The position numbers and the translations under genes are program-made. The notes under the pieces were generated by a model. That model was not told the origin of the DNA. It did not search any database and saw nothing but the letters and a program-made list of their open reading frames with translations. From IMG/VR virus record IMGVR_UViG_3300031784_000003: a stretch of 64,000 nt of DNA, one strand, 5' to 3'. Below are positions 19,616-55,293 of this stretch, piece after piece; position 1 is the first letter of the stretch, and every line of letters starts with the position of its first letter. Source of the DNA: a virus (lineage: Duplodnaviria > Caudoviricetes).

Positions 19616-19900
19616 ATGAAAATTAGAAAAAACGGACAAACAATCACTCTATCTGAATCAGATATGAAAAGAATTGTAAAAAAATTATTAAGAGAGGAAG
19701 CTGATCCTAAAGAAGATTTAGTTGTATGTTGTAAAACGGCAGGTATTAAACCACCTACATCATGTTTATCAGGAGACTATGCTAAATGTTTAGAAGAAGT
19801 AGGTAAAGTAATTATGACTGATCCTATTGGTGAAGGTATGAAGGCTATTGCAGCATTAAATTGTCTTAAAGAAAAAGCTAATTCACCAATTAAAAGTTAA
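19616..19900 (+). CDS. Small Cys-containing protein with LSESDMKRIV N-terminal tag
   Basis: MKIRKNGQTITLSESDMKRIVKKLLREE followed by a domain with 5 Cys. Confidence 0.7.
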   Translation: MKIRKNGQTITLSESDMKRIVKKLLREEADPKEDLVVCCKTAGIKPPTSCLSGDYAKCLEEVGKVIMTDPIGEGMKAIAALNCLKEKANSPIKS

Positions 19901-19929
19901 TAATATTAAAAAAAAATAAATAATAGAGT

Positions 19930-20352
19930 ATGAAAAAAAGGATAGTTAGACTAACTGAATCTGATTTAAGAAGAATAGTTAAAAGAGTAATCAGAGAAGA
20001 TATGGGAGGAATGGACGATGTTCACCCTACTTATGGTAACGTTAACTTCAATGAATTAACTAGAGATCAAATCTTAAATTTAGGTAAGGATAATGATGAT
20101 GATGAATACTACGGTACATTTGATGATACATATATGGTAGATAAAAATGATAGACCTGGTAAATTTGATTATTCGGATTTTGAAGAAGAGGAATTTTCGG
20201 ATTTTGATTCATATAGAAAAAGTAAATATGGTAGAGATCCTAAAAACAAATGGGATTTAAATTCACCTGATGAAGATCAAGGCAGAAGATTTTTTAACGC
20301 ATATCAAGAAAAATCTGGCGGAAGACCTTTTAAAGTAAGAAGGAGAAGATAA
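19930..20352 (+). CDS. Acidic protein with LTESDLRRIV N-terminal tag
   Basis: MKKRIVRLTESDLRRIVKRVIRED followed by a D/E/Y-rich body. Confidence 0.75.
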   Translation: MKKRIVRLTESDLRRIVKRVIREDMGGMDDVHPTYGNVNFNELTRDQILNLGKDNDDDEYYGTFDDTYMVDKNDRPGKFDYSDFEEEEFSDFDSYRKSKYGRDPKNKWDLNSPDEDQGRRFFNAYQEKSGGRPFKVRRRR

Positions 20353-20368
20353 GTTATTTTTAACACAT

Positions 20369-20396
20369 AAAAAACCCATCATTGATGGGTTTTTTT
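20369..20396. terminator. Intrinsic (potentially bidirectional) terminator
   Basis: AAAAAACCCATCA-T-TGATGGGTTTTTTT. Confidence 0.85.
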
Positions 20397-20419
20397 ATTT
20401 AGTTTAAATATTTATAATT

Positions 20420-23400
20420 ATGAATAGATTATTTTCAGAAAAAGAAGTTAAAAAATTAAAAAATTTTATAGGTAAAAGTCTAATTACTGAACAAGGTGTA
20501 GGTAGAAGACTTGCAGATGCGTTAGAAGACGCAACATCTGCCGTTTCTAAGGCAATTAAAAATGTTGACCCAAAATTAGCCACAAACTTTTTAAATACTG
20601 AGATTAAAAGTTTTGATGATATTTCAAAACATTTAAACGATTATAAATCTATATGGAAAGCTATGGGTATAGATTGGGATTATACGAATAAGGCAATTAC
20701 AAATTTTAAAAAATGGTCAGATACTGGATTTTTAAAAACCGCAGATGAAAAGTTAATTTTACAAGTTATTAATGACTTACCAACTGAAGGGGATTTAAGA
20801 GGGATTGTTTTTGACTTATGGAAAAAAAGTAAGGGTACATACACACCAAAAAAACCTAAATCTAAATCTGTTGTTGTTAAAAACAAAAAAACTGGACAAA
20901 ATATAATTCAAAAAACAGAAAACAATCAAGTAAAAAATTATGAGGTAGATAATAACGGAAAATTATCTGAAATAAGTGATTCTGAATTAGATTTAGAACT
21001 AGATTCTAAAGAAAAACCAGAACAAGTTGCGGGTGTAAAATTGGATGACATACCAAAAGATGAATGGGATATTATTGATGCGTCATTTAAAAAATATGGT
21101 TTTGAAAATGATTGGGGTTTTGACCCTAACACAGGAGAACCTGTATATGTTATATTGCAAATAGGTGGAGAAAAAGTAAAATTTAGTTTAAATAAATATG
21201 GTCCTGAAGCATATGATAATCTTAAAATTAGTGATGATAATTTAATAGAAAAATTTAATGATGAATATGAAAAAACTTTTGAGAATACCAGTTGGATGGA
21301 TAAACCATCTAGGGAAGATTGGGTTAAAAAAGAAAAAATATTAAAGGACCCTAAATTAAGGGAAAAATATGTTAATAGATATGATGTTTCATTAGGTGTT
21401 AAATTGTGGGCAGATGAACCTAATGGTGACTGGGGTATTTGGGTTATCGCAAACCCTACAGAAATAAAAAATTATAGGAAAACAATCACACCAGAGGATT
21501 TAAAAAATGCTATATTACATACAGTTTATCACGAATTGACTCACGTTAAACAAAAACCTGGTCAACATAGTAATTTATCGTATGGTTCTGGCGAATTTAA
21601 AACTACTGAACATGCTTGGACTTATTTAAATTTTAAAAGAGATAAATCCACTAAAAGATATTCTTTTGATGAAAAAGAAATATTTAACTTTTGGGCATGG
21701 CATAAAGAAGATCCTGTTAAAGCGGAAGAACTTATTGCAGATTTTGGTGACGAAAAAGGGATTGACACTAGTTTAGATTATAGTTGGAGAGACGATTTTT
21801 ATGAGTGGGGGAAAGAAAAAAATATTTTTGACGAAAAATTTATTACAAAAAATAAAATTAAAAAACAAATTGATTCATATACTTACAAAAGAAACCTTTT
21901 TAGTGATGACGTTAAAGTAAGATCATTAAAATTGAGTATTGATAGATTTTCTAAAAGTGATAGTAGATTTAAAAAAATAAAAGAGACTACAGATAATTTA
22001 AACGATAAAGAATTTTTAAAATTTATAAATGATAATATTAATATACCTGAAATTGAGAAGGTTGTAAATGATGCTGCATATGAATTGAGTTATTGGAGTA
22101 ATGTTAAAGAAATAGAAGCCGAATTTGGGGCTAATATTAAAACTTTAATGGAATTAGGTACTTTAGAAAAAAATAAAGGTTTTGCCACTTTCTTAGTGGA
22201 TTATTTAAGAGGTACAAATAAATCTCAAAAACTGGCAGATATTGATGTAGCAAAACAAAAAAACTATATGGATACTATGCATCCTATGGTAAAAACTGTA
22301 AAAAAAATAGATAGTAGTGTAGATTCATTAATAGAATTTTTCAAAACATATATAAATAAATTTTTAAATAAAAATGTTACTGATAAAGTAAAATTAGAAA
22401 AAGAATTAACTGATGTAGGTGAGTGGGTTAATAATATACCTGAAGATTTTTTCGCAGTATTAGGAAAATTAGAAAACAGATGGAAAAAGGTATACCCTGA
22501 ACAAGCAAAAAAGATTGAGAAGGATTTATATAAACAGGCATACAATTTAATTTCTAAAGGTTATCCAGCGTTATTACCATTTATTGTTAGTGGTTTATCT
22601 GATGATGAAACTGAAGATAATAAAAATAAAAATGAATCTATAGTTTATAAAAAACATTATATAACTGAATCTTTTAAAAAAACTTATTCATTCGATTGGG
22701 ATGACAATATATTAAAAATGCCAACGAGAATTCATTTAGAATATAAGGTTGGTGGTTTACACTGGGTACCAGTTTCAGTGTCTACAGAACAATTTAGATC
22801 CATTAGACATAAAGTAGGGACAGAATTTAGGTATTTAAATGACAATGTATTAGACGCATTTAAAGATTTTAGAGAATATGAATCATTTATTAGAGATGTT
22901 AAATATGCGTTAGACAGTAGAAATTTTGGGCCTAGTTTTAATGACTTTAAAGAGGCGTTAATTAATGGTGAAGATTTTTCTATTATAACTGCGAGGTCAA
23001 ATTCACCCCTATCTTTAATTGATGGTATTAAATTATTGATAGATAAAAACTTTTCTTATAGAGAAAAAGATGAGATGGAAAAAAATCTTAATGGTACATC
23101 AATCAATGACTATCTTAAAATTCAAGATTATCATCCAGTATCTTCAAAAGAATTTTTAAAAAGTTTTAATTTAGATTTAAGTGGATCTAATCCTGAAAAA
23201 GGTAAAGAAATCGCCTTCAGAAGTTTTGTTGACCGTATAGTAAAACAAATAGACAATATAATAGACGATCCTAATTTTGAAGGTATAAGTGTGGGCTATA
23301 GTGACGATGATTTAAAAAATTTAGAGATAATAGAAAATTTAATTAGAAAAGAATTGAGTATGAAATACCCTAAAATAAAATTTAATGTCTATGACACATC

Positions 23401-23446
23401 TGACCCAAATAATCCGAAAAAGAAAAGAATTGTAATAGAAAAATAA
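20420..23446 (+). CDS. Multidomain (polyvalent-like) protein: shared helical domain + HExxH peptidase-like domain + C-terminal HAD-fold domain
   Basis: YHELTH at 21530-21544 with distal EIEAE at 22109-22123. The C-terminal FDWDDN…IITARS…GYSDDD matches HAD motifs I, II and IV. Confidence 0.7.
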   Translation: MNRLFSEKEVKKLKNFIGKSLITEQGVGRRLADALEDATSAVSKAIKNVDPKLATNFLNTEIKSFDDISKHLNDYKSIWKAMGIDWDYTNKAITNFKKWSDTGFLKTADEKLILQVINDLPTEGDLRGIVFDLWKKSKGTYTPKKPKSKSVVVKNKKTGQNIIQKTENNQVKNYEVDNNGKLSEISDSELDLELDSKEKPEQVAGVKLDDIPKDEWDIIDASFKKYGFENDWGFDPNTGEPVYVILQIGGEKVKFSLNKYGPEAYDNLKISDDNLIEKFNDEYEKTFENTSWMDKPSREDWVKKEKILKDPKLREKYVNRYDVSLGVKLWADEPNGDWGIWVIANPTEIKNYRKTITPEDLKNAILHTVYHELTHVKQKPGQHSNLSYGSGEFKTTEHAWTYLNFKRDKSTKRYSFDEKEIFNFWAWHKEDPVKAEELIADFGDEKGIDTSLDYSWRDDFYEWGKEKNIFDEKFITKNKIKKQIDSYTYKRNLFSDDVKVRSLKLSIDRFSKSDSRFKKIKETTDNLNDKEFLKFINDNINIPEIEKVVNDAAYELSYWSNVKEIEAEFGANIKTLMELGTLEKNKGFATFLVDYLRGTNKSQKLADIDVAKQKNYMDTMHPMVKTVKKIDSSVDSLIEFFKTYINKFLNKNVTDKVKLEKELTDVGEWVNNIPEDFFAVLGKLENRWKKVYPEQAKKIEKDLYKQAYNLISKGYPALLPFIVSGLSDDETEDNKNKNESIVYKKHYITESFKKTYSFDWDDNILKMPTRIHLEYKVGGLHWVPVSVSTEQFRSIRHKVGTEFRYLNDNVLDAFKDFREYESFIRDVKYALDSRNFGPSFNDFKEALINGEDFSIITARSNSPLSLIDGIKLLIDKNFSYREKDEMEKNLNGTSINDYLKIQDYHPVSSKEFLKSFNLDLSGSNPEKGKEIAFRSFVDRIVKQIDNIIDDPNFEGISVGYSDDDLKNLEIIENLIRKELSMKYPKIKFNVYDTSDPNNPKKKRIVIEK
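20480..20848 (+). repeat. Copy 1 of a duplicated ~123-codon domain (copy 2 at 27986-28354)
   Basis: Hand alignment gives 23 differences in about 123 aa (~80% identity). An identical 44-bp stretch occurs at 20543-20586 and 28049-28092. Confidence 0.9.
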
Positions 23447-23517
23447 ATTTTTTAAAAAATACAATATTTATATAATAAATAATACAACTAATAAAAAGAA
23501 ATTAAAAAAAAATTAAG

Positions 23518-24006
23518 ATGGCTGATTTATTAATGAGAATGCCTGTTCCTTACGAACCACTAAGAAAGAATAGGTTTATTTTGAGATTTCCAGATGAATT
23601 GGGAATTCAAGAATGGTGGGTATCTACAACTAGCCGACCAAAATATACGAGTCAAGAGGTGGAGATACCTTTTTTAAATACTTCTACATATGTGATTGGT
23701 AGATTTAACTGGGAATCAATCTCTGTAACTTTTAGAGACCCTATCGGACCTTCTGCGACACAAGCATTAATGGAATGGGTTCGTTTACACTCTGAAACTG
23801 TAACGGGTAGACAAGGTTATGCTGCGGGATATAAAAAGGACGTAGAGTTAGAAATGTTAGACCCAACAGGTGTAGTAGTTCAAAAATGGATTTTACAAGG
23901 AACTCAATTAAATGATGTGGATTTCGGTGGATTAGATTATTCATCTTCTGATTTGGCAGATATCACTGCAACACTTAGATTTGATAGAGCAATTAACGTA
24001 TTCTAA
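23518..24006 (+). CDS. gp19: Tail tube protein (T4 gp19-like)
   Basis: EP.RKNRF, WESISVTFRD, QALMEW, KWILQG and LDYSSSD tube-family motifs; 162 aa. Confidence 0.92.
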   Translation: MADLLMRMPVPYEPLRKNRFILRFPDELGIQEWWVSTTSRPKYTSQEVEIPFLNTSTYVIGRFNWESISVTFRDPIGPSATQALMEWVRLHSETVTGRQGYAAGYKKDVELEMLDPTGVVVQKWILQGTQLNDVDFGGLDYSSSDLADITATLRFDRAINVF

Positions 24007-24027: not shown

Positions 24028-24056
24028 AAAAATCCCATTATTCAATGGGATTTTTT
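24028..24056. terminator. Intrinsic terminator after the tube gene
   Basis: AAAAATCCCATT-ATTC-AATGGGATTTTTT. Confidence 0.85.
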
Positions 24057-24107
24057 GTTTTTATTTAATATTTATTTATTAGAATAATTATATATAATAA
24101 AAAAATT

Positions 24108-25199
24108 ATGGCAAGAAAAATTTTAAATTTAAATGAAGAATTAAAAAGGATAAAATCTTTATTTACTGAAGAAAGAATGTATGGTAATCTTAATGAAGAT
24201 GTATCTGAATGTCAGTGTGAAGACCCTAATGGTGATCTATACGGTAAACTTAATGAAGAAACGGGTCTATGTGATCCTGAGTTATGTGAATCAGAAGGAG
24301 ATGATGATAATAAATCCACATCAGGCGTTCCCTCAGGTTTTATTGAATTAACGTCATCTAAGAAAAATGAAATAGAAAATGATGAAACAGATTCAATTAA
24401 ATTTTATGAATCAAAACAAGTGGGTGGTAAAACATATGTGAAAAGAATGTCTTTTGAAAAAATAAAACAAAAAGTAGGATATATTGATAAACCAAAACCA
24501 GGAAGAGATATGGACTACGTAAAAAGAAAAATAAAAGACGATAAAGGTGTACCTGTAGAAATTTATATCTCTAAAGATGGTGAATTAAACTTCATGACAA
24601 AAAAAGAAGGTAAAGCAATTAGAAAAGATATTAGTAAAGATGTAAAACAAGATAAGGGTGTTATCGATGATAATATAGATAGTTGTAAAGAACATCTTAA
24701 AGCTATGTATAAAGCTTGGAAAAAGGGTGCTGGTCCTGGTGAATTAGAAGATTTTGGGTTTGAGGCAGATGCATATAAATCTGTTGAAAGATGTATGGCG
24801 AATTTCTATAATAGATTTGAAAAAGATGATGGAGTATTTTCTAGAATTGGAGTTGGTAGAGAGGATATAATGCAAATGGTTAAATCTTTTCAAGACGATG
24901 ATTTAGTTGGTGATTATAGAAGTGGAGAAGGTCAAGTTCAAAAAGGTGTAGAAGGTGAAAAATATACGGTTGAAAATGCTAGAGGTACTAAATTAGGTGT
25001 CATAAAGAAAAAAACAGGAAATCAGTATAAATTTAATGGTGTAAGAGGATATATATTTATAGAAAAAAGAAATGGTGTTTTACAATTTAAACCATTTGTT
25101 TTAGGTCCAATTTTTAAAGCGTTAAATTTAAATGTTGATACTAATAAAATAACGGTAATCGAAGGTGGAGAAAATAACGCATTATTTAGAGTTAAATAA
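24108..25199 (+). CDS. Hypothetical protein with LNEELKRIKSL N-terminal tag
   Basis: The tag is nearly identical to that of ORF 27890; short Cys module CQC…LNEETGLCDPELC. Confidence 0.75.
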   Translation: MARKILNLNEELKRIKSLFTEERMYGNLNEDVSECQCEDPNGDLYGKLNEETGLCDPELCESEGDDDNKSTSGVPSGFIELTSSKKNEIENDETDSIKFYESKQVGGKTYVKRMSFEKIKQKVGYIDKPKPGRDMDYVKRKIKDDKGVPVEIYISKDGELNFMTKKEGKAIRKDISKDVKQDKGVIDDNIDSCKEHLKAMYKAWKKGAGPGELEDFGFEADAYKSVERCMANFYNRFEKDDGVFSRIGVGREDIMQMVKSFQDDDLVGDYRSGEGQVQKGVEGEKYTVENARGTKLGVIKKKTGNQYKFNGVRGYIFIEKRNGVLQFKPFVLGPIFKALNLNVDTNKITVIEGGENNALFRVK

Positions 25200-25201: not shown

Positions 25202-27049
25202 ATGAGTAAAAAAATTTTCATAACAGAAAGTCAATATAATAGAATTTTTAGTGGTGACAATTTTTTATTTGAAGCGGATGATAAAAAGGATGCTGAAAAT
25301 GCTAAAAAATTTTTAAGAAGTATTGGTTGGCCTAACGATATAATAGGTGGATCGTTATCACAAAATCATGTTTTTGCACAATCAGTATTAAATGCATTAA
25401 AGCAATTAAATAATGTTTATATTGCAGAAAAGGTAATCACTGGTACTAAGGGTAAATATGATGTTTGTATCTCTAAACCAGGATTAGGTACTTGTAATGT
25501 TGCGGCTGGAGGTAGTCTATATGCAGCAAAAGACTTTAGTGATTTAGCAAATAAAATTTCTAATAAGACTATTGGTGATAATAGGGCTTCTGATATCGCT
25601 AACAATGACACAGTATACTTTCAATTCGGTAAATTACAAAATGAATTAAATACGGCTTTCAAATATGATAAATATGCTTGGAAGTCAGAATATTTTCCTG
25701 ATGGGTGGTGGAATTTTTTTAGTACATATTTTGGTACAGATAATTATACACAAATAAAAAATAGAATACAAAAAATCCAACCTTATAATATTAATTACAA
25801 TAAAAGTACTTTAAATCAATATGAAAAGGGTACTAGTCTTTGGAATTACATATCAGATTGTTTTACTGATTTTCATTGTGCGATGGATGTTGCCTCTATT
25901 GCGGTTTTAGCAATACCAGGAGTTGGAATGGCTTTAAGTGCGGGTATAGACTTTGCAAATGCAGCCACATATGGTGTTGATGCGTATAACGCAAAAACAA
26001 AAGAAGAAAGAGACGCTGCAATTATTGCAGGTGGATTAACTCTTTTTGGTGGATTTTTAGGTGGTGGTATTGGACAAACAAAAAGAATTTTAACTAAAGG
26101 TAGTGCAAATCCAAAAGTTTATAGATATGCTGATGATGTCATTAAGAGAATCGATGACGAATTACCATTACTTAGAGATGTAAAAACTAATGTAAAAAAC
26201 CAAAAATTAACAACCATTTATAAAGAAACTGCCGAAAAATATGGATTAAAAGATTCAGAAATATTATTAGGTCATGATATTATAGATGATTTCGCAAAAA
26301 TTGATCCTAAAGTTGCAAAAATTTATAGTGATGCTTTAACCACTATAGAAAGTAAGATAGGTAGGGCTAATTTATTGACAGTTGCTAAAAATAAAAATTT
26401 TAAAAATCTTGTCTTACAAAATAATGGTGATGTTGTAACATCACTAAAAGCGTTTATGAAGACTACTGCAGGTAAGGAGGCATTACAAGAATTAGGGATG
26501 TTTGTAATTCTTTCAGAAGTATTATCTGAACCAACAGTTGCAAAATGGTTAAGTGATAAAATTAATCTAATACAACATAGTTTAAAACCAACTGTTCAGA
26601 CTACTATTAAAAATGATGGTTATGATTGGAAGACAACTAAAGAAATATTTTTTTCTGATGGTTCTACTAAAGATAATACTTTACTTTTAAAGGCATATGA
26701 AAAAGGTTGGAGACCTTGGACTAAAAGTGAAGAATTACCAAATGAAGAGGAGATGCAAAAATCTAGAGAGTGGTTATCTAAAAATCCTAGTTTCCAAACT
26801 AAAAAATTTAAAGATTGGTTGTCTACACAAGCTTCTGAATTAGGGAAAGAAAGTCTTAGTGGTAAAGAATCTTTAGGTGTAGAAATGACACCTGTTGACG
26901 CAAAAGACAGAAAAGAAAATGTGAGGTACGCTGATACTAAAGAAGAGATGGACGCTTTAAAACCTGGGATAGATGATGGTAAAAGTGGTGAGGAGGCAAT
27001 AGATTTGTTAGATAAACAACTAGAAGAATATTTAAAAAGTCAAAAATGA
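25202..27049 (+). CDS. Hypothetical protein with ITESQYNRI tag and a pre-toxin-TG-like hydrophobic hairpin
   Basis: HCAMDVASIAVLAIPGVGMALSAGIDFANAATY…AAIIAGGLTLFGGFLGGG. Confidence 0.65.
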   Translation: MSKKIFITESQYNRIFSGDNFLFEADDKKDAENAKKFLRSIGWPNDIIGGSLSQNHVFAQSVLNALKQLNNVYIAEKVITGTKGKYDVCISKPGLGTCNVAAGGSLYAAKDFSDLANKISNKTIGDNRASDIANNDTVYFQFGKLQNELNTAFKYDKYAWKSEYFPDGWWNFFSTYFGTDNYTQIKNRIQKIQPYNINYNKSTLNQYEKGTSLWNYISDCFTDFHCAMDVASIAVLAIPGVGMALSAGIDFANAATYGVDAYNAKTKEERDAAIIAGGLTLFGGFLGGGIGQTKRILTKGSANPKVYRYADDVIKRIDDELPLLRDVKTNVKNQKLTTIYKETAEKYGLKDSEILLGHDIIDDFAKIDPKVAKIYSDALTTIESKIGRANLLTVAKNKNFKNLVLQNNGDVVTSLKAFMKTTAGKEALQELGMFVILSEVLSEPTVAKWLSDKINLIQHSLKPTVQTTIKNDGYDWKTTKEIFFSDGSTKDNTLLLKAYEKGWRPWTKSEELPNEEEMQKSREWLSKNPSFQTKKFKDWLSTQASELGKESLSGKESLGVEMTPVDAKDRKENVRYADTKEEMDALKPGIDDGKSGEEAIDLLDKQLEEYLKSQK

Positions 27050-27234
27050 TAGTTTTAGAAATACAAAAAAAAATAGATGATATAAAAAATAGGTTAGATG
27101 AAATTAATAATCTATTTGATATTTATAATATAAATGATGAAGAAAGTATGAATTATTTTATTAATGAAATACAATCTTATAAAGAAGAATTAAAAAAAAT
27201 AAGTGATGAAAAACTTAAAAGAACAAATAAGTAG
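27046..27234 (+). CDS. Small coiled-coil hypothetical protein
   Basis: 62 aa; ATGA-coupled to the upstream stop; overlaps the next ORF. Confidence 0.45.
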   Translation: MIVLEIQKKIDDIKNRLDEINNLFDIYNINDEESMNYFINEIQSYKEELKKISDEKLKRTNK

Positions 27235-27877
27235 AATAAAAAATCTAATGTTATTATCTGAACAATGTGGCACTGATTTAAATCAATGTGAAGAAGATTT
27301 AGAAAATAAAGGATATAAGGTTTTTAGTCCTACTGAAAGTAAAAATATTTGTGACGATAATGAAAACATACAATGTTTAGAATCATCATTCTCATCATTA
27401 AGTGGAAAATTAAGTGTTAGTTCTGCAGGAAACTCTGTTAAAGATTGTTTTGTACTATTAAAGAGTAATCATCAAACAATGGGAATACCAACGTTTCATT
27501 TTACTTTTTATTCTGACGGTCAAGTCGTTTTATCATTTTTATTAAATGAAAATAATGATAAAAAGAAATTAGTGTATAGATCTAAATATGAATGTAGTGG
27601 TGGTTCTGTAGATATTAAAGGTGGTGCGGGTTTTAAATATATTGGTGTTAAGTCAGGAAACGTAGTTAAGGCAGAAAATATAACTTTTATTAATGATAAT
27701 AATAACAATGTTGTACTTAATGATGCTCAGGCAGTTAAAATGGAACTTAAAAGTGGAGAATTAAAATACCAAGATGTTTTAACATATTATATGAATAGAG
27801 CTGGATTATATACAGGAAATGTTTTAAATAAAGGATTACCATATAATCAAATAGTGGCATTATTAACTCATACATAA
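27206..27877 (+). CDS. Hypothetical protein with LKEQISRIKNL N-terminal tag
   Basis: ATG 27206 gives MKNLKEQISRIKNLMLLSEQ; several Cys. Confidence 0.7.
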   Translation: MKNLKEQISRIKNLMLLSEQCGTDLNQCEEDLENKGYKVFSPTESKNICDDNENIQCLESSFSSLSGKLSVSSAGNSVKDCFVLLKSNHQTMGIPTFHFTFYSDGQVVLSFLLNENNDKKKLVYRSKYECSGGSVDIKGGAGFKYIGVKSGNVVKAENITFINDNNNNVVLNDAQAVKMELKSGELKYQDVLTYYMNRAGLYTGNVLNKGLPYNQIVALLTHT

Positions 27878-27889: not shown

Positions 27890-30052
27890 ATGAAAAAAAG
27901 ATATACTAATTTAAATGAAGAAGTGAATAGAATTAAATCTCTATTTACTGAAGAAAGGTTATATGGTAATTTAAAAGAAAATAAATTATTAACTGAGCAA
28001 GGTATAGGTAAAAAACTTGCAGATGCGTTAGAAACTGCAAGTTCTTCTGTTTCTAAGGCAATTAAAAATGTTGACCCAAAATTAGCCACAAATTTTTTAA
28101 ATTCAGAAATCAATACTTTTGATGACTTAGCGAAACATTTAAACGATTATAAATCTATATGGAAAGCTATGGGAATTAATTGGGATTATGCGAATGACGC
28201 AATTTTATCATTTAAAAAATGGTCAGATACTGGATTTTTAAAAAGTGCAGACGATAAATTAATTTTACAAGTTATCAATGATTTACCTGTGGAAGGTGAT
28301 TTAAGAGGTATGGTATTTGATTTATGGAAAGATAGTAAAGGAAAATATACCCCACCTAAATCAAAAAATCAGACTACTATTGTTAGTAAATCTAATAAAG
28401 GTGAAAATGTTATCCATAAAGTAGAAACTGTTGGTGGTAAAGAAAAAATTGAGACTTACTCAATAGAGAGTGATGGGATTAAAAAAGATGACGGTTACGA
28501 CCCAAATAGGGCTAGTGAAGAAGTTAATTCACATTTTGATGGGGATGATTTAGTTTCTGGTGGAGGAAGTAGTAAAATCACTACTGATGTGTTAAATGCT
28601 AAAGGTAATCCAGATAATATAAAAGGTGAAATTATAAATGCTATTGAGGAAGGATTTAATAAAATATCAGGTAGAGGTGGTAAACAAATGACTTCTGATG
28701 AAATTGTTGAACAGATTAAAAATGGGGGAGTTTTAATGGTAAAACGATCTGATGGTTCTTATAGAGTAATAAATACTATAGAATTAATAGAAATGGAAAT
28801 AGATCAAAATTTGGATATAACTAACATAAAAAGTATTGGTAAAAAAGATGTAACACCACCAGTTAATGTTCCACCAGTTAAAGATGGTGGTGAATCAGTA
28901 GATGTACCTACAGACGGTGGTAGAAATGGAAGTAAAAAATCTAAAAATAATTTTTCTTCAAATATTGGTAACATAATTGGACAAGGTTTCAGATATGTGT
29001 TCCCAACAGTTAGTGAAATATTAAAACGTGTATCTTTATTAGGTCCAGGTAGTAAATTTTATTCTAAACAAAGATTTAGTATTGTCGATTCGAGATTTCC
29101 AACAGAAGGAGGTTATAATAAACGAGCTAACAAGATTTTGAAGGGTTTGTTGGAAAACCCTGCAAGAATATTGTTTGTAGAACAAACTGCTTTAATTACT
29201 ATTGTTGGTATAGCAAAATCAATCGAAAGAGGAACACTACCTAAAGATGAAGAAGCTATAAATACTGCAATTGCAGATTATAAGAATAGTGAAATATGGA
29301 AATACAGTGTACCGTATTTATTAGCGGGTACACTTGCCGATGTCTATCAGAGGATTATTAATTTAAGAAAAATTAGTTACGCTTCTTGTAGAAGTAAAGC
29401 AGAAAAAAAATTAAATCCTAATGATCCTCTTTATGAAATAAAGAAAAAGGAAGTTGAAGTGGAAATTGAAGCGTGTAAAGATGAGGTAGACTCATTTTTT
29501 GATAAAATTGATGCTTTTGGAAAAGACTTTACTAAATTTAAAAAAGAATTTGCCGACCTTAGTAATATAGATCAATGGGATCAATCAAAAATAGAAAAAT
29601 TTTGTGAAGAAGATTTAGCGGATAAACAAGAGGTTTTGAAAAATTTGAGGGTTAGTTTAACTAATTTAGATGATGAAATAAAAAATCGATTTAATACAGA
29701 TGACATTAAAAAAAGAGAATATATTGTTACTATAATTAATACTTTGAAGAACGTTATGCCTGCGTTACCTGAATTACCTACTCCAGAAGAAGTAATTAGT
29801 CAATTAATGCCTAAAACGGAAATTAATGGTAAAAAAATAACCCCTTTAGATATACAAGGGTTAGAAACTAAATTAAACGCAGCATGTGCTGAATACTGGA
29901 ACAAAAAAAGAGATGTTCAAGATCAAATAGTTGATCCAGATGATTATGAACAACCAATAGATACAATTAATGTTGACCCTGACACTAAAGAAAGTTTAGA
30001 CGCAGATTTTGGTATGATAGAAGTAATTGTAGAACCAATAGAAATAGTTTAA
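27890..30052 (+). CDS. Mosaic hypothetical protein (tag of ORF 24108 + domain of ORF 20420 + helical C-terminus)
   Basis: NLNEEVNRIKSLFTEERLYGNLKE followed by the LLTEQG duplicated domain. Confidence 0.8.
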   Translation: MKKRYTNLNEEVNRIKSLFTEERLYGNLKENKLLTEQGIGKKLADALETASSSVSKAIKNVDPKLATNFLNSEINTFDDLAKHLNDYKSIWKAMGINWDYANDAILSFKKWSDTGFLKSADDKLILQVINDLPVEGDLRGMVFDLWKDSKGKYTPPKSKNQTTIVSKSNKGENVIHKVETVGGKEKIETYSIESDGIKKDDGYDPNRASEEVNSHFDGDDLVSGGGSSKITTDVLNAKGNPDNIKGEIINAIEEGFNKISGRGGKQMTSDEIVEQIKNGGVLMVKRSDGSYRVINTIELIEMEIDQNLDITNIKSIGKKDVTPPVNVPPVKDGGESVDVPTDGGRNGSKKSKNNFSSNIGNIIGQGFRYVFPTVSEILKRVSLLGPGSKFYSKQRFSIVDSRFPTEGGYNKRANKILKGLLENPARILFVEQTALITIVGIAKSIERGTLPKDEEAINTAIADYKNSEIWKYSVPYLLAGTLADVYQRIINLRKISYASCRSKAEKKLNPNDPLYEIKKKEVEVEIEACKDEVDSFFDKIDAFGKDFTKFKKEFADLSNIDQWDQSKIEKFCEEDLADKQEVLKNLRVSLTNLDDEIKNRFNTDDIKKREYIVTIINTLKNVMPALPELPTPEEVISQLMPKTEINGKKITPLDIQGLETKLNAACAEYWNKKRDVQDQIVDPDDYEQPIDTINVDPDTKESLDADFGMIEVIVEPIEIV
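27986..28354 (+). repeat. Copy 2 of the duplicated ~123-codon domain
   Basis: See copy 1 at 20480-20848. Confidence 0.9.
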
Positions 30053-30088: not shown

Positions 30089-30868
30089 ATGGAAAATTCA
30101 AATAATATTTTAGACCCAAATTATGTACCTGAAGATTACAAGGTACCTTATGATATAATAGAATTACCTTCACAAGGTTTATTATACCCTAATAAAAAAG
30201 CGCAAGTTAAAGTAGAATATTTAACTGCATATGATGAGAATATTTTAACATCCCCAAACATTTTGGCGAATGGTAAAATTATAGATGTTCTTTTAGAAAG
30301 AAAAGTTAAAGATTTAGGTTTCGACCACAAACTTTTATTAGAAGGTGATAGAATGGCAATAATATTATTTTTAAGAGTGTCTGCATTTGGACCTATTTAT
30401 CTACAACCAGTAATTGATCCAATAAGTAAAAAAATTGTGGAGGGTGAAGTTGATTTAACTCAATTACAAAATAAAAAATTACTTGTAAAACCAGACGAAC
30501 AAGGGTTATTTGATTTCATTTTACCTACTTCTAAAAAGAATATAAAATTCAGATTTCTATCAGGAAAAGATGAAGAAGAAATTGACATTTTAGATAATCA
30601 ATTAATGGAAAGAAATAAAAATGAAATTTCTAATAGAACTACATTAAGGTTAGAAAGATTAATTATGGATATCGATGGTGAAAGAGATAAAATAAAAATA
30701 TCTAATTTACTAAAGGCATTACCTATTATGGATATTAGAAAATTAAATAAATATATTTCTGAAATCGAACCAGGAGTAGATTTCAAAACTAGCGCTAGGA
30801 CTCTGGGGGGAGAGTCCGTTACTACCTTTCTTAGAATCAATAAAAATTTATTTTGGCCTGACATCTAA
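30089..30868 (+). CDS. gp26: Baseplate hub/tail assembly chaperone, T4 gp26-like
   Basis: IELPSQGLLYP, YLTAYDENIL, GDRMAIILFLR and LPTSKKNIKFRFL motifs; lies between the tube and tape-measure genes. Confidence 0.8.
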   Translation: MENSNNILDPNYVPEDYKVPYDIIELPSQGLLYPNKKAQVKVEYLTAYDENILTSPNILANGKIIDVLLERKVKDLGFDHKLLLEGDRMAIILFLRVSAFGPIYLQPVIDPISKKIVEGEVDLTQLQNKKLLVKPDEQGLFDFILPTSKKNIKFRFLSGKDEEEIDILDNQLMERNKNEISNRTTLRLERLIMDIDGERDKIKISNLLKALPIMDIRKLNKYISEIEPGVDFKTSARTLGGESVTTFLRINKNLFWPDI

Positions 30869-44651: not shown

Positions 44652-45404
44652 ATGAACAATAAAAAAAAATTTATTTTAGAGGATTTAAAAAGATATAAAC
44701 AACTTTTGGAATACACTTTTTATGTTCCAGAAGAAAAAGAAGATGATTTAGATGGTGATTTACTATTAGATGATTCTTTTTTAACGGAACAAGATCCTGC
44801 AGGTGACGATCCTTTTATGGATGTTGCCGATCCTGAAGCTGGTGATACAGAAAAAGAAGAACCTGCTGGACAAGCACCTGCTGGAGATACAGAAAAAGAA
44901 GAACCTGAGGGACAAGCACCTGCTGGTGATGAACCTGTTGAAGATGAAGAACCAGAAATAGAAGATGAATTTGCCGATACTGAAGGTGTAGGGGACACTT
45001 CCGAAGATGAGGATACTGTTGAAGTTGATGTAACTGATTTGGTTGATAATACTGAAGAAACTAAAAAATCGGTTTCAGATGTTAGCGATAAAATGGAAGA
45101 ATTACTTTCTAAATTATCAGAATTGGAAAATCAAATATCTGGTATGGATGAAGTCATTAGTAAAATTGATTCGTTAGAAAAAGAAATAGAAAAAAGAAAC
45201 CCAACACCTGTTGAAAAATTAGAAATGAGATCGATGCAAGATTTTAACTTCCCATATAGTGTTAAGTTAAAAGATTTTTGGTCAGATAAAGAAGGTTATG
45301 AAGCAACTAATGATTCAGAAGAAGAATTTATTTTAAGACAAAGTGATGTTGAGAATTTTGACAGAAATGAAATAAAAGCCTCTTTTGATTACCCTAAAAA
45401 ATAA
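44652..45404 (+). CDS. Highly acidic coiled-coil protein (possible prohead core/scaffold)
   Basis: ILEDLKRYKQLL tag, D/E-rich low-complexity middle, and a coiled coil (MEELLSKLSELENQI…). Confidence 0.55.
   Translation: MNNKKKFILEDLKRYKQLLEYTFYVPEEKEDDLDGDLLLDDSFLTEQDPAGDDPFMDVADPEAGDTEKEEPAGQAPAGDTEKEEPEGQAPAGDEPVEDEEPEIEDEFADTEGVGDTSEDEDTVEVDVTDLVDNTEETKKSVSDVSDKMEELLSKLSELENQISGMDEVISKIDSLEKEIEKRNPTPVEKLEMRSMQDFNFPYSVKLKDFWSDKEGYEATNDSEEEFILRQSDVENFDRNEIKASFDYPKK
44838..44930 (+). repeat. 42-bp tandem repeat (2 copies + partial)
   Basis: Encodes AGDTEKEEP(A/E)GQAP twice, then AGD. Confidence 0.9.
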
Positions 45405-50548: not shown

Positions 50549-52408
50549 ATGGAATTATCAAATAAAATTTTGTCTGACATTACGGTTTATATGAAGTATG
50601 CTAAATTCTTACCAGAAATGAATAGAAGAGAAACTTGGGAAGAATTAGTTACTAGAAACAAAGAAATGCATCAAAAAAAATACCCCAATATTAAAGATGA
50701 AATTGAAGAAGTTTATAAATTAGTTTATGATAAAAAAATACTACCTTCAATGAGAAGTTTACAATTTGGTGGTAAACCTATTGAAATATCTCCTAATAGA
50801 GTTTATAACTGTGCATATTTACCTATCGATCATACGGATGCCTTTTCAGAAACAATGTTTTTATTGTTAGGTGGGACAGGTGTAGGTTATTCGGTACAAA
50901 AACATCACGTAGATAAACTACCAGAAATTAGAAAACCTAATCCTGATAGAAAAAGAAGATATTTAATAGGGGATTCAATAGAAGGATGGGCAGACGCAAT
51001 TAAATTATTAGTAGAATCTTATTTTGGTGTAAAGTCATCTACTCCGATATTTGATTATTCAGACATTAGACATAAAGGGGCATTATTAGTGACATCGGGT
51101 GGTAAAGCACCAGGTCCACAACCATTAAAAGACTGTATACATAATATTAAAAAAGTATTGGACTCTAAAACTGATGGAGAAAAATTAACACCTATTGAAA
51201 CACATGATATCGTATGTCATATTGCAGATGCAGTTTTAGCGGGTGGTATTCGTAGAGCAGCATTAATTAGTTTATTTTCTGCGGATGACAATGAAATGAT
51301 TTCTTGTAAAGCAGGAAACTGGTGGGAATTAAATCCTCAGAGAGGTAGAGCAAATAATTCGGCAGTATTATTAAGACATAAAGTTACTAAAGAATTCTTT
51401 TTAGATTTATGGAAAAGAATTGAGTTGAGTGGTGCTGGTGAACCAGGAATCTACTTCTCAAATGACAAAGATTGGGGTACAAACCCTTGTTGTGAGATAG
51501 GTCTTAGACCTTATCAGTTCTGTAATTTATGTGAAGTGAACGCATCGGACATCGAATCGCAAGAAGACTTTGAAAAAAGAGTTAGAGGTGCAGCGTTTAT
51601 TGGGACATTACAGGCTGGTTATACAGACTTCCATTATTTAAGAGATGTATGGAAAAGAACTACTGAAAAAGATGCACTTATTGGTGTAGGTATGACAGGT
51701 ATTGGATCTGGAGTTGTTTTAGGTTATGATATGAAAGCAGCTTCTGAAGCAGTTAAAGATGAAAATGAAAGAGTTGCGACATTAATCGGTATCAATTCTG
51801 CCGCTAGAACTACTACTGTTAAACCATCAGGTACCTCATCATTAGTTTTGGGTACATCATCAGGGATTCATGCTTGGCATAATGACTACTATATTAGAAG
51901 AATCAGAGTTGGTAAAAATGAAGCAATATATACTTACTTATCTATAAACCATCCTGAATTAGTAGAAGATGAAATTTTTAGACCACACGATACTGCAGTG
52001 ATATCTATCCCACAAAAATCACCAGAAGGTTCTATATTAAGATATGAATCTCCTTTTGATTTATTAGAAAGAGTTAAAAAGGTATCACAAGAATGGATTA
52101 AACCAGGACACAGAAGTGGGCAAAATACACATAATGTATCTGCGACAATATCTTTGAAAGAAGAAGATTGGGAATTGGCTGGTGAATGGATGTGGACGAA
52201 TAGAAAATTCTATAATGGATTATCAGTTCTACCTTATAATGGAGGCACATACCAACAAGCACCTTTTGAGGATTGTAATATCGAAACATACGAAACTATG
52301 ATGAAGTCTTTATCTTCAGTTGATTTAACTAAAGTTATAGAATTACAAGATAATACTAATCTTTCAGGTGAAGTTGCTTGTGCTGGAGGAGCTTGTGAAA
52401 TTATATAA
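50549..52408 (+). CDS. nrdJ: Ribonucleotide reductase, probably class II (B12-dependent, monomeric RTPR-like)
   Basis: YNC, GGIRRAA, TNPCCE, FCNL, TTVKPSGT and C-terminal CAGGAC; no ATP cone and no adjacent beta subunit gene. Confidence 0.78.
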   Translation: MELSNKILSDITVYMKYAKFLPEMNRRETWEELVTRNKEMHQKKYPNIKDEIEEVYKLVYDKKILPSMRSLQFGGKPIEISPNRVYNCAYLPIDHTDAFSETMFLLLGGTGVGYSVQKHHVDKLPEIRKPNPDRKRRYLIGDSIEGWADAIKLLVESYFGVKSSTPIFDYSDIRHKGALLVTSGGKAPGPQPLKDCIHNIKKVLDSKTDGEKLTPIETHDIVCHIADAVLAGGIRRAALISLFSADDNEMISCKAGNWWELNPQRGRANNSAVLLRHKVTKEFFLDLWKRIELSGAGEPGIYFSNDKDWGTNPCCEIGLRPYQFCNLCEVNASDIESQEDFEKRVRGAAFIGTLQAGYTDFHYLRDVWKRTTEKDALIGVGMTGIGSGVVLGYDMKAASEAVKDENERVATLIGINSAARTTTVKPSGTSSLVLGTSSGIHAWHNDYYIRRIRVGKNEAIYTYLSINHPELVEDEIFRPHDTAVISIPQKSPEGSILRYESPFDLLERVKKVSQEWIKPGHRSGQNTHNVSATISLKEEDWELAGEWMWTNRKFYNGLSVLPYNGGTYQQAPFEDCNIETYETMMKSLSSVDLTKVIELQDNTNLSGEVACAGGACEII

Positions 52409-52411
52409 GTT

Positions 52412-52492
52412 GTGAACGTAAAATGGGGTAACGATATAACGCTAACATATCAAATTATGTTAGCGTTTTATAATCAAAGAAAAAAGAATTAA
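52412..52492 (+). CDS. Possible 26-aa micro-ORF overlapping a 12-bp hairpin
   Basis: GTG start: MNVKWGNDITLTYQIMLAFYNQRKKN*; inverted repeat at 52438-52449 / 52456-52467. Confidence 0.3.
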   Translation: MNVKWGNDITLTYQIMLAFYNQRKKN

Positions 52493-52497
52493 AAAAA

Positions 52498-52725
52498 ATG
52501 AATGTAGGGGCATCAAAAGATTGGGTACAACAACTATACATAAGGGAATTCGGTCCTAAACTACAACCAAATGAGTTCTATTATGATAATGATGGTAGAA
52601 TAGTTATGAATGAACAATATCATAAACGAAGAGGATCTTGTTGTGGTAATGGATGTTTACATTGTCCTTATGAACCCAAACATATAAAAGGTAATACAGA
52701 AATAAAAAAATCACTACAATCGTAG
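52498..52725 (+). CDS. Small Cys/His-rich protein (DUF5522-like)
   Basis: FYYDNDGRIVMNEQYHKRRGSCCGNGCLHCPY. Confidence 0.75.
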   Translation: MNVGASKDWVQQLYIREFGPKLQPNEFYYDNDGRIVMNEQYHKRRGSCCGNGCLHCPYEPKHIKGNTEIKKSLQS

Positions 52726-52736
52726 TGATTTTTTTT
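52704..52736. terminator. Bidirectional intrinsic terminator between convergent genes
   Basis: AAAAAAATCACTAC-AATC-GTAGTGATTTTTTTT. Confidence 0.88.
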
Positions 52737-53298
52737 ATGTATTAAATTTTTTAGAATAAAGATATTTTATCATTTCAATATCCTTTTCAGTAAAATTATT
52801 ATTGTGATCTAAAATAGAATTATTTTCTTTTTCATAATGAGAAAAACCTAACATATGAAACATTTCGTGTCTAATTGTATTAGAAAATGATTTAAATTCT
52901 TTATTTTCTACAATATCTATATGTATGTAAACACTTTTAATTTTATGGTTTATAGGTTCTGTAAAAGTTATACCTATATTAACTAAATCGTATTTTGACC
53001 ATTTAAACATATTGGCAAACTCTGTATCGGATAAGAAATATATAACCACATTAGCAGAATCTTTATTTTTAACCATACTTATATTAATAGGTTTAATAAG
53101 TGGTTTAAAAATTTTAATAGTTTCAACAACATCCAATGAGTCTTTTTTGGTGTACTTACCGTATAAACATATTTTAATATCTTTATACCATCTATCCCCA
53201 CCTTCTGTTGCTAATAAAAGTTCTTCTTTAGTAAAAAGACTTTGAGAAAAAAACCAAATAGGGTTTAAAATTAATAGTGCAATTATTAAATTTTTCAT
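52735..53298 (-). CDS. Secreted metzincin-type zinc metalloprotease
   Basis: ATG 53298 gives the signal-peptide-like MKNLIIALLILNPIWFFSQS; zinc motif HEMFHMLGFSH (HExxHxxGxxH); NSIL at the Met-turn position. Confidence 0.8.
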   Translation of the reverse strand: MKNLIIALLILNPIWFFSQSLFTKEELLLATEGGDRWYKDIKICLYGKYTKKDSLDVVETIKIFKPLIKPINISMVKNKDSANVVIYFLSDTEFANMFKWSKYDLVNIGITFTEPINHKIKSVYIHIDIVENKEFKSFSNTIRHEMFHMLGFSHYEKENNSILDHNNNFTEKDIEMIKYLYSKKFNT

Positions 53299-53322
53299 AG
53301 TTGTTTTGTATTTATAATAAAA

Positions 53323-53353
53323 CAAATATATAATTTTTTCTTAAATAAACAAA
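53323..53353 (-). promoter_or_regulatory. Bacteroidota-type promoter for the metalloprotease
   Basis: Minus strand: TTTG at 53353-53350, a 19-nt spacer, then TATATTTG at 53330-53323. Confidence 0.72.
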
Positions 53354-53367
53354 AATTATTAAAAAAT

Positions 53368-55293
53368 ATGAAGAATCTTTTTGAGGAGTTACAAAGAATA
53401 AAGTCTTTAATGGTTTACGAACAAGGTGTAAAGATTAATGAAGTTAGTACTGCATCCGTTGAAGGTGGTGATACTGATGAAGGTGATGGTGGTAGTGAAA
53501 ATCAAAATAAACCTGCGGATAGTGAAAACGAAAAAAATAATGTAGAACAAGAATCAAAAACTGAAGGTGGTAAAGAACCAAGTAAAAAGAATTGTGTGTC
53601 TATTACAAATACTGAGGTATATAAAACTGAAAGTGATGTAAATAAAGAAGTACCTGAAAAGTTCTTTCAGAAGTTTAAACAAAAAGTGGAAGAACAGTTT
53701 GGTTTATTCGCGGATGGTGAATTTACTATTGAAGATATCAATGTATTTGGAGGTGCTAGTAACTATTGGAAGGGTAGTAATAGTAATAAATTTCCTGCGG
53801 TAGAACCTAAGTATTGTAATGAATATGATGTTAACGTTGGTATAACTTCATTAAAAACTTGGTCGTCTGGTTGTAAAGGTTTTGGTAAAACCGAAAAAAA
53901 AGTTTATGATAAAAATTCTTCAGGTAAAAAAAGTAATGAAGATTTAGCAAAAAGAAGGGCACAAAAAGTTTTAGATGAATTAACTAAAAAAATTGTGACT
54001 TTTGCTCAACAAAATAATATTAAAGTTCCAGCCGATTTCAAAAAAGAAATAAAAAATATTACTTCTGGTTCCATTTATACTGAAGATAAAACAGATACTC
54101 ATTCAGTAGTAGCAGCAGCAATTAAAAGTGGTGAATTAAATGCGGGTCAATTAGTAATGATAGACGCAGTTTTATGTTTTACACCATACAACCCATGTCC
54201 TAATTGTATGATTAGAGATCCAAAAACTAAACAATGTAAATGTAAAGAAGGGTTAACAGAAAAAGATGGTAAATGTTTTTGCCCTAATGGAAAAGAGGTG
54301 GATGAAAATTGTGAATGTAACAATTGTCCAGATCCTTGTATGACATTTAATAAAGAAACAAAAAAATGTGATTGCCCTGAAGGTATGACATTTAATGAAT
54401 CTACAAAACAATGTGAATGTCCTAAAGGTTTCAAAAAGACAGATGATTGTGAATGTTTGAAAGAAAAAGAAAGAGAATGTCCTGATAAATGTCAAAAACG
54501 TGATGAAAATGGTGATTGTAAATGTCCTAATGGTATGACATTTAATGAAGAGACACAAAAATGTGATTGTCCTGAAGGTAAAATTAAACCTACTGTAGAT
54601 GCGTGTAATTGTGTAACACCAAAACCACCATTAAAATGTGGGTATAATGAGAAAAAAGAAGGGGGTAGAGGTACTAAACAAAATAACTTTGTTGCAGCAA
54701 CAGTTAAAAGTGGATTCCCTGTTGGGGAAGGGGATACGGTAACTATTTCATTTGATTCATTGGTTGTTCCTGACGCATTTTATGTTAAGTATGGTGATCA
54801 AGAGTTCTTTAGCGGATTTATGGGAGATGTCTATAATGATGAATATAGACAAGTTGCTTTAAGTGTTAAAGAAAAGAAAAAAATGTTACCATTACAGTCT
54901 AAATATGTTAAAGATATTGTTAAAGATGAATTAAATGCTGGTGATAACGATTATAGTGGGATGGATAATGTTGTAAGGAATTTTGTTGGTGAGTTAGTAA
55001 TGTATAAACGACAAGATGGTTTATTAGAGAGTATAAATGAAGCAATTAAATCTGAAGGGGGAAAATTGACAGTTAAAGATATCTTTAAAAATGGTGATGC
55101 TGAGGCAGAAAAAATAACTGATGATATTATTAATAGTGGTAGTATAAAAGATAACATTGTTAGATATAAACAAATAATGAAATCTGGTACATCATTTAAA
55201 ATTACCAAAGAAGAAGAGAATTTCCAACTGATAATAATGGTATTTTCACCATTAGATAGAACAATATTTACGATGGAAGTTAAATGTGAATAA
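53368..55293 (+). CDS. Tagged protein with an OmpA-like domain and three 8-Cys repeat units
   Basis: MKNLFEELQRIKSL tag; INVFGGAS…NEDLAKRRAQKV OmpA-like motif; 24 Cys in 54196-54612. Confidence 0.75.
   Translation: MKNLFEELQRIKSLMVYEQGVKINEVSTASVEGGDTDEGDGGSENQNKPADSENEKNNVEQESKTEGGKEPSKKNCVSITNTEVYKTESDVNKEVPEKFFQKFKQKVEEQFGLFADGEFTIEDINVFGGASNYWKGSNSNKFPAVEPKYCNEYDVNVGITSLKTWSSGCKGFGKTEKKVYDKNSSGKKSNEDLAKRRAQKVLDELTKKIVTFAQQNNIKVPADFKKEIKNITSGSIYTEDKTDTHSVVAAAIKSGELNAGQLVMIDAVLCFTPYNPCPNCMIRDPKTKQCKCKEGLTEKDGKCFCPNGKEVDENCECNNCPDPCMTFNKETKKCDCPEGMTFNESTKQCECPKGFKKTDDCECLKEKERECPDKCQKRDENGDCKCPNGMTFNEETQKCDCPEGKIKPTVDACNCVTPKPPLKCGYNEKKEGGRGTKQNNFVAATVKSGFPVGEGDTVTISFDSLVVPDAFYVKYGDQEFFSGFMGDVYNDEYRQVALSVKEKKKMLPLQSKYVKDIVKDELNAGDNDYSGMDNVVRNFVGELVMYKRQDGLLESINEAIKSEGGKLTVKDIFKNGDAEAEKITDDIINSGSIKDNIVRYKQIMKSGTSFKITKEEENFQLIIMVFSPLDRTIFTMEVKCE
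54196..54612 (+). repeat. Cys-rich protein repeat region
   Basis: Three units of C-x2/3-C…CxC…CxC…CxC, with an internal CP.GMTFN..T..C 15-mer. Confidence 0.85.

Follow-up and report, generated by a model that had tools for sequence, protein, structure and literature searches.

Why should proteins of one phage that otherwise have nothing in common begin with the same short peptide? This question is raised by a 64,000-nucleotide stretch of DNA (the window) from the IMG/VR virus record IMGVR_UViG_3300031784_000003, in which at least eight genes between positions 19616 and 55293 encode proteins of this kind. An earlier note on the window had proposed that these N-terminal tags load interchangeable payloads into the phage head. 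We compared the window with 80 related loci from IMG/VR and used G001, a 253,879-bp IMG/VR contig that shares synteny with the window (77-83% identity in nucleotides), as a stand-in for the genome. The tags, referred to below as leaders, were found to form several classes that share a single ending, and we give about an even chance to the reading that they constitute a greatly expanded version of the capsid-targeting propeptide system of phage T4.

Leader peptides of the window

All tag peptides quoted in the earlier note were recovered at the starts of the open reading frames (ORFs) to which it had assigned them. Only their cores had been quoted, and the conserved leaders of the window ORFs extend over 19-30 residues. 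The tagged proteins are listed below and are named in the text by the first nucleotide of their gene (aa, amino acids; nt, nucleotides; a slash follows the Glu of the closing motif).

19616..19900, + strand: 94-aa protein with Cys-rich body; type A-long leader, residues 1-27 (nt 19616-19696), end L25-R26-E27/E28
19930..20352, + strand: 140-aa protein; type A leader, residues 1-23 (nt 19930-19998), end I21-R22-E23/D24
20420..23446, + strand: 1008-aa multi-module protein; own leader class, residues 1-24 (nt 20420-20491), end I-T-E/Q
24108..25199, + strand: 363-aa protein; type B leader, residues 1-30 (nt 24108-24197), end L28-N29-E30/D31
25202..27049, + strand: 615-aa protein; type A-short leader (MSKKIFITESQYNRIF...), next closing motif L22-F23-E24/A25 (nt 25202-25273)
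27206..27877, + strand: 223-aa protein with Cys motifs in its body; short type B leader, residues 1-19 (nt 27206-27262), end L17-S18-E19/Q20
27890..30052, + strand: 720-aa protein; type B leader, residues 1-30 (nt 27890-27979), end L-K-E/N
44652..45404, + strand: 250-aa acidic coiled-coil protein among replication genes; B-like start (FILEDLKRYKQLLE/Y)
53368..55293, + strand: 641-aa protein; short type B leader, orthologue-conserved block to I23-N24-E25/V26 (nt 53368-53442)

Comparison with relatives gave the following leader classes, the last of which was seen in G001 and never stands alone in the window.

Type B, 19-30 aa: (M-K-K-x-x-x)-N-[LI]-N-E-E-[IL]-x-R-[IM]-K-S-L-F-T-E-E-R-L-[YF]-G-N-L-x-E
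Type A-long, 27 aa: M-K-I-K-K-N-G-K-V-I-x-L-[TS]-E-S-D-L-[KR]-R-I-V-K-K-V-[LI]-x-E
Type A-short, ~18 aa: M-K-x-I-I-[IL]-[TS]-E-[SN]-Q-[YF]-[KR]-R-[IV]-F-L-x-E-Q
Class of 20420, 24 aa: M-x-x-L-F-S-E-K-E-I-K-K-L-K-x-F-...-L-x-E-Q
Leader of the 53368 orthologue family: conserved through I-N-E/V-S-T
Type C, 12 aa: MKxIIRKILKEE

Each leader is a basic amphipathic helix, preceded in type A-long by a short strand. None has a hydrophobic core, and the leaders are therefore not signal peptides. Every class closes with [L/I/V]-x-E (ΦxE) followed by Q, E or D, and the similarity between paralogues stops exactly at this point. Position-specific logos likewise drop to background information content past the terminal ΦxE, after +20 to +22 in type B and after +13 to +15 in type A-long. 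This ending, common to five sequence-distinct leader classes, bears out the proposal that the tags end in a motif of the type cut by gp21, the prohead protease of T4. Since paralogous leaders consist of the same amino acids and differ by synonymous codons, selection acts on the peptide and not on the RNA.

A six-frame search with the expression [LIF]xE..R[IY][KVF] returned eight real ORFs, always with the motif 3-11 residues past the first Met, and the sole other match within a long ORF was internal, at 43031. Three leader patterns were enriched in the first 30 residues over internal sequence 25- to 123-fold in the window and 19- to 68-fold in G001. The bare motif [LI]xE, on the other hand, occurs 1.2-1.6 times per 100 aa and is present in ~40% of any 34-residue stretches. 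Because it is this common, the L/I-x-E "domain junctions" to which the earlier note had drawn attention are not meaningful on their own.

Closer examination of the individual proteins modified some of the class assignments. The 1008-aa protein at 20420, previously described as a weak type B, does have a tagged N-terminus, but its leader belongs to a separate conserved class that ends in L-x-E-Q. The start of 44652 is B-like, but this protein is a weak and doubtful member, its G001 orthologue scoring 2.5 bits against the type B profile. In 27890 a second site, L-T-E/Q at residue 36 (nt 27997), follows the leader and precedes a module that is also found in 20420; with 63% identity between residues 4-180 of 20420 and residues 18-196 of 27890, this is the one duplicated domain that had been noticed before. 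The leader of 24108 is followed by a Cys-rich acidic stretch. Orthologues of 25202 read ...RIFLKE/E or ...RVFLNE/Q at the end of the leader, and one member of this family (L068:17891) carries a PG_binding domain directly behind it. Homologues of 19930 were found in metagenomes only, and in relatives the similarity to other proteins ends past the leader, while the leader of 19616 (27-28 aa) heads many different bodies in relatives.

Portability, spread and gene fusion

A 33-column type B profile was run against a database of 1.84 billion cluster representatives (50% identity). It matched 399 protein clusters at E<=1e-3 and 210 at E<=1e-10, with scores of up to 93 bits and almost always at the very start of the protein. 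Among the best matches the leader began at residue 6 or earlier in 144 of 150, in proteins of 31-962 aa. ΦxE was located at the canonical position Arg+16/17 in 117 of the 149 best matches and no more than 12 residues further on in all but one; the residue behind it was Q in 52% of the best matches. The bodies of at least 100 aa behind these leaders, again among the best matches, fell into at least 34 families unrelated by BLAST. Together with the loci of relatives, in which several paralogues per locus share the same 27- to 30-residue leader in front of unrelated bodies, this confirms that the tags are portable N-terminal modules. Even where sheath proteins share only 64-79% identity, relatives have near-invariant leaders in front of bodies that have been replaced.

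In G001, strict patterns identified about 30 carriers, with visibly more by eye, including those of the 12-residue class, and many of the genes are located at 3-65 kb, a long way from the tail genes. Genomes of this clade contain roughly 30-45 carriers each. The tagged proteins reach up to ~1200 aa.

Genes are fused and split at leader boundaries. The C-terminal HAD-like domain of 20420 is encoded on its own in most relatives (L050:4142-4963 and ~30 other loci), by a 273-aa gene that starts with an A-short leader (MKVKLTESQYKLLKEF...). The window and its closest relatives have the domain fused to the rest of the protein, with a decayed leader (YITES / YLTES) directly ahead of it. Proteins of 900-1200 aa (L004:9910-13509 at residues ~935-971, L009, L010 and the database proteins P0062-P0064) were found to contain a second type B leader internally, complete and still preceded by M-K-K. 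These are either recent fusions through loss of a stop codon or true polyproteins.

Protease, scaffold and capsid genes of a relative

In T4, the internal proteins IPI, IPII, IPIII and Alt carry an N-terminal capsid-targeting sequence (CTS) that is removed by gp21, which cleaves after L/I-X-E (PMC9026906, PMC5694885, PMC3012670); the earlier note had described this precedent correctly. The T4 head-core proteins gp21, gp22, gp24, gp67 and gp68 all have [LI]xE within residues 6-10.

The earlier note had made its proposal dependent on a gp21-like protease. G001 encodes a Peptidase_S77 protein (PF03420, 82 bits; phrog_207, 1.7e-39) whose motifs LGE.(D/N)HP and GVSSRG are aligned to the parts of T4 gp21 that contain the catalytic His and Ser. 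The protease is thus present in a syntenic relative, but it does not come from the window's own record. Its gene adjoins an acidic scaffold-like gene and a gp23-like capsid gene. The capsid protein contains L-L-N-E/S-T ~20 residues ahead of the conserved (I/M)VRR (IVRR) N-arm motif. A MAFFT alignment with T4 gp23 did not place LLNE opposite FLTE/A of T4, so that the putative capsid cleavage site is identified by motif and position.

The N-terminus of the scaffold protein (NIIEEALLEAKSIED) was rejected as a type B-like leader (0.2 bits against the profile, rank 31 of 338). Directly downstream of the capsid gene of G001, L094:7962-8798 (- strand) encodes a 278-aa protein that starts with MRIKKKYVILESRL... 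and resembles the A-long leader; it would be a leader-like gene within the head module. In the gp67/gp68 position upstream of the protease, a 158-aa protein (L094:13359-13835, - strand) contains an internal A-type-like stretch (EITESEKKIIKSIL), which may be a chance likeness, given its weak profile score of 1.6 bits.

Cargo domains

Pfam and PHROGs searches with the nine tagged proteins of the window returned nothing significant, and most bodies belong to no recognizable family. Among type B carriers from the database, peptidoglycan-binding domains were present in 13 of 115 and MORN repeats in 5 of 115. Peptidoglycan-binding domains were also found in 4 of 46 type A/C carriers from the loci, and one carrier, encoded by G001 and 751 aa long, contains an M23 peptidase domain (E 2e-33).

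The earlier note had listed peptidase, phosphatase, membrane hairpin, peptidoglycan-binding and Cys-repeat payloads. This list was borne out in part. Its entries concern above all 20420, 53368 and the hydrophobic Gly-rich stretch of 25202 (residues ~226-292), for which a hairpin is predicted from hydrophobicity. The modules of 20420 behind its leader are as follows.

Residues ~25-180: module common to 27890
Residues 371-375 (nt 21530-21544): YHELTH, invariant among orthologues
Residues 747-751 (nt 22658-22672): YITES, vestigial internal A-type leader
Residues 753-1008 (window 22676-23446): HAD-like domain

The candidate peptidase is predicted from the invariant HExxH motif YHELTH. The phosphatase received moderate support. 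The residues D20, D22, D23, T118, K190 and D223-225 of the HAD-like domain (DxD...T...K...DDD) are invariant in 34 homologues, and its AlphaFold2 model has a pLDDT (predicted local distance difference test) of 81. An exhaustive structural search (VIA) placed the 3'-phosphatase domain of T4 Pnkp first (Z 7.7), followed by many other HAD proteins; bacterial Pnkp1 RNA-repair enzymes were matched as well, Pnkp matches ranging over Z 7.0-7.7. All structural matches remained below Z 8, Foldseek against the PDB gave none at E<=1e-3, and Pfam was negative for this domain. The Pnkp-type likeness is therefore suggestive but below the safe Z range, and a nucleic-acid end-healing activity is possible.

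Behind its leader, 53368 consists of a disordered Pro/Lys/Glu/Thr linker, then an OmpA-like region (N..LA..RRA) and CxC Cys repeats, with a C-terminal domain at the end. The leader was modeled at low confidence as a free helix ahead of ~55 disordered residues, and may thus not be part of the fold. The low-complexity repeat linker, shared with the orthologues L097-L123 (e.g. KPAENKPVENKPTDNK in relatives), is reminiscent of linkers that span the periplasm. As a peptidoglycan-binding payload 53368 itself is weak (Pfam OmpA E 0.1, with N190, L193, A194, R197 and A198 invariant; Foldseek matches to OmpA-like domains at E 0.04-0.1 and template modeling scores of 0.40-0.45, on a model of pLDDT 65), while this function is clear across the leader family. 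The Cys repeats are indeed present: the 53368 family has about eight CxC...C repeats with weak EGF-like structural matches.

Gene neighborhood

The majority of the tagged genes of the window form an island between genes for the tail sheath, tail tube and baseplate hub. Genes that provide the context in the window are the following.

16718..19567, + strand: tail sheath gene, start of the leader-gene island
23518..24006, + strand: tail tube gene (phrog_4542, E 1.3e-25), inside the island
30089..30868, + strand: gp26-like baseplate hub gene, end of the first leader-gene island
46446: UvsX-like gene
55354: gp25-like baseplate wedge gene

When the ORFs of this island behind the sheath gene were counted in 20 relatives, 3-8 of 6-12 proved to be tagged, and the synteny with a gp26-like hub gene recurs beside the distant leader protein P0062. 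The gene for 53368 lies directly upstream of gp25-like and gp6-like baseplate genes. The leader is absent from every annotated replication or tail-structure protein of the window.

Possible functions of the leaders

If the leaders are packaging signals as in T4, the leader would bind the scaffolding core and carry the attached protein into the prohead, a gp21-type Ser protease would cut after the terminal Glu and free the mature cargo within the head, and the cargo would leave with the DNA at infection. We infer head localization, cleavage and injection of the tagged proteins entirely from the comparisons described here. This expanded T4-type system is the explanation we favor, since it accounts for the N-terminal position and portability of the leaders, for the conserved leader in front of a hypervariable body, for the common ΦxE end and for the presence of a gp21-type protease in the lineage. 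With the address in a small N-terminal module, cargo genes can be gained, lost, fused and split quickly. The principle is textbook knowledge for T4, and analogous propeptides are known from phiKZ-like phages; the novelty lies in the scale of the system, in the existence of several longer classes of leader that all close with ΦxE-Q/E, and in the fusion proteins that contain leaders internally.

A number of observations weigh against such a packaging role. The residue after Glu is mostly Q, E or D, while it is A, S or T at T4 sites and S at the capsid site of the clade. Some orthologues lack Glu at the expected spot (VYD in G001), and ~20% of the database members have D, T or N there (e.g. LVD, LVT) with ΦxE a few residues later. 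Complete leaders inside fusion proteins are unlike the strictly N-terminal CTS of T4. The tagged genes of the window lie among tail and baseplate genes, not head genes, and the recognizable cargo is mostly directed at the cell wall (peptidoglycan binding, M23, OmpA-like and EGF-like Cys repeats); both fit a location in the tail or baseplate as well as one in the head. The protease, as described above, was seen in a relative. In addition, no cultured phage is known to carry the leaders: 50,697 phage records were searched by tblastn with 27890, with 53368 and with two leaders alone, and no match was obtained even at E 10, to which the low-complexity filter may have contributed. A complex predicted from the protease of G001 and residues 1-50 of a leader protein scored 0.00, which is evidence neither way.

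The last points on location lead to an alternative that we consider improbable, yet to be taken seriously, in which the leader is an uncleaved docking helix by which exchangeable accessory proteins are attached to the tail, to the hub of the baseplate or to the surface of the virion. Among these proteins would be modules that bind or cut the wall and act in the periplasm while the phage penetrates. Tagged genes lie on either side of those for the sheath, the tube, the gp26-like hub and the gp25/gp6-like proteins, the cargo (peptidoglycan-binding, M23, OmpA-like, MORN and Cys-rich/EGF-like) is typical of extracytoplasmic or virion-associated wall-active proteins, and a conserved N-terminal anchor with a variable distal part is the usual design of phage fibers and spikes. 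Docking, however, gives no reason why five distinct classes should end in ΦxE-Q/E exactly where conservation stops. Roughly 30-45 tagged genes per genome, some encoding up to 1200 aa, are many for the docking sites of a tail, folded domains would not fit the lumen of the tube, and many tagged genes of G001, at 3-65 kb, are remote from the tail genes. Nor does wall-active cargo exclude the head, because gp16 of T7 is a head-internal protein with a wall-cutting domain. Similarly improbable in our estimate is that the leader is recognized by another intracellular machine unrelated to the virion, such as a modifying enzyme with many substrates (as for ribosomally synthesized and post-translationally modified peptides, RiPPs), a chaperone, an unfoldase or an unconventional pathway to the envelope. 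Cargo that is directed at the wall but has no signal peptide must reach the periplasm in some way, and the tagged genes are dispersed between small genes without known function. Against this, the leaders themselves are not signal peptides, no conserved partner gene was seen adjoining the tagged genes, and the only protease known to be present has a specificity that fits the terminal ΦxE. A radical-SAM (RiPP-like) or HSP70 partner was rejected, as neither gene is present in the 254-kb G001.

Very little probability remains, in our judgment, for the absence of any common function, with the N-termini being remnants of duplication and recombination at gene starts or the result of a translation-initiation constraint in an AT-rich genome. 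N-termini of the MKK... type are common in such genomes, bare [LI]xE is as frequent as noted above, and fusion and fission of genes are evident in the leader-gene region. We disfavor this explanation in view of the near-invariance of the leaders while bodies are replaced among relatives with sheath proteins only 64-79% identical, the 399 clusters with one 30-aa leader at up to 93 bits, the synonymous variation that reflects selection on the peptide and not on the RNA, and the 19- to 123-fold N-terminal enrichment.

An extension of the T4-type packaging system, which we hold to be quite unlikely, would make the leader classes distinct address codes that sort cargo to different virion sites or set the order of ejection, with the multi-leader fusions as polyproteins cut in the prohead at L-x-E/Q. 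Peptidoglycan-binding, M23 and OmpA-like proteins, for example, would leave first and enter the periplasm, and the cytoplasm would be the destination of enzymes such as the Pnkp-like phosphatase. This would amount to a programmable multi-channel delivery system.

Should the leaders indeed load heads, a simple sequence profile would suffice to recognize the injected proteins of an entire uncultured lineage, comprising hundreds of cargo families, many without known function and likely including counter-defense and envelope-breaching factors. The CTS principle of T4 would then scale from a few proteins to about a tenth of the proteome of a jumbo phage with several leader types, and phage engineering would gain new, longer natural packaging tags. 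Even without the mechanism, the ΦxE at the end of a leader marks, as a practical rule, where such a hypothetical protein can be divided into address and payload.

Comparison with known systems

The likeness to the CTS of T4 is one of architecture only (length, hydrophobic spacing and the terminal L/I-x-E), as judged from PMC9026906 and from the N-termini of T4 gp21-24, gp67 and gp68. Common to both are a short N-terminal amphipathic peptide that ends in L/I-x-E and is attached to unrelated, fast-evolving proteins, a protease of the gp21 family (Peptidase_S77) in the lineage, and a T4-type core of structural genes. In contrast to the single 10-residue class of T4, the leaders here are 12-30 residues long and form at least four or five classes. 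Whereas T4 has a handful of tagged proteins, the carriers here number dozens per genome and their cargo forms hundreds of clusters in metagenomes, reaches ~1200 aa and is often wall-directed. The residue following Glu and the occurrence of complete leaders inside fusion proteins differ as well.

In the phiKZ-like giant phages SPN3US, 201phi2-1 and phiKZ, long propeptides of ejection or inner-body proteins are cut at S/A-x-E by a diverged gp21 homologue (PMC5694885, PMC9026906). These are likewise jumbo phages in which many head proteins have removable N-terminal propeptides ending in x-E, as is putatively the case here, and SPN3US gp53 and gp54 are comparable as paralogues with conserved N-termini and diverged bodies. 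Their propeptides, however, mostly exceed 100 residues and end in S/A-x-E, whereas those described here are short, portable and of few types. The phiKZ-like lineage is unrelated to the phage with a T4 core studied here.

Polymorphic toxin and effector systems combine a conserved N-terminal trafficking module with variable C-terminal payloads. The constant address with an exchangeable payload, the rapid turnover and the several paralogues per locus are shared with the leader proteins. Those systems employ cellular secretion machines and toxin-immunity pairs, while the presumed carrier here is the virion, and neither immunity genes nor toxin domains were seen.

The moraphages are large aquatic phages with a T4-like core that form a lineage known from metagenomes and for which Flavobacteriia are the predicted hosts (PMC12619734). 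They resemble the window lineage in being aquatic and large, in the T4-type sheath, tube, gp25, gp6, prohead protease and glycosyltransferases, and in the suggested Bacteroidota host. In contrast to the DnaK/DnaJ reported for moraphages (PMC12619734), none was found in G001. The window lineage may be related to them; the term "N-terminal" is absent from the main text of that paper (PMC12619734).

Genome, host and additional observations

The window derives from an uncultured jumbo phage, a large AT-rich (~29% GC) myovirus of the T4 superfamily, and the best cultured match of its tail sheath gene has 33% identity only. The host phylum is probably Bacteroidota, as suggested by the 187-aa ORF 52735-53298 (- strand), which has a classical signal peptide ending in ...WFFSQ, a style common in Bacteroidota; Flavobacteriia of fresh or marine waters are likely hosts. 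Several lipoprotein-like ORFs (MKKIIILLMGVIGLSSC...) were noted in G001.

Of 50 window genes, 14 have TATTTATW no more than 70 nt ahead of them, among these 20420, 24108, 44456 (which directly precedes 44652) and 53368. As a candidate late promoter this box does not separate tagged from untagged genes (25% vs 29%), and no strand bias was apparent. GC-rich hairpins with T-runs (e.g. AAAAAACCCATCATTGATGGGTTTTTTT) are present after the sheath gene (~19575-19610), before 20420 (~20365-20395) and before 24108 (~24030-24060), the last two followed by a ATATTTAT-type box; the gene for 24108 lies behind both a terminator hairpin and a TATTTATW box. These combinations resemble pairs of a terminator and a promoter, by which the island would be split into several transcription units. 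A 75-aa ORF at 52498-52725 with a C-terminal Cys cluster (SCCGNGCLHCPY) is conserved in G001.

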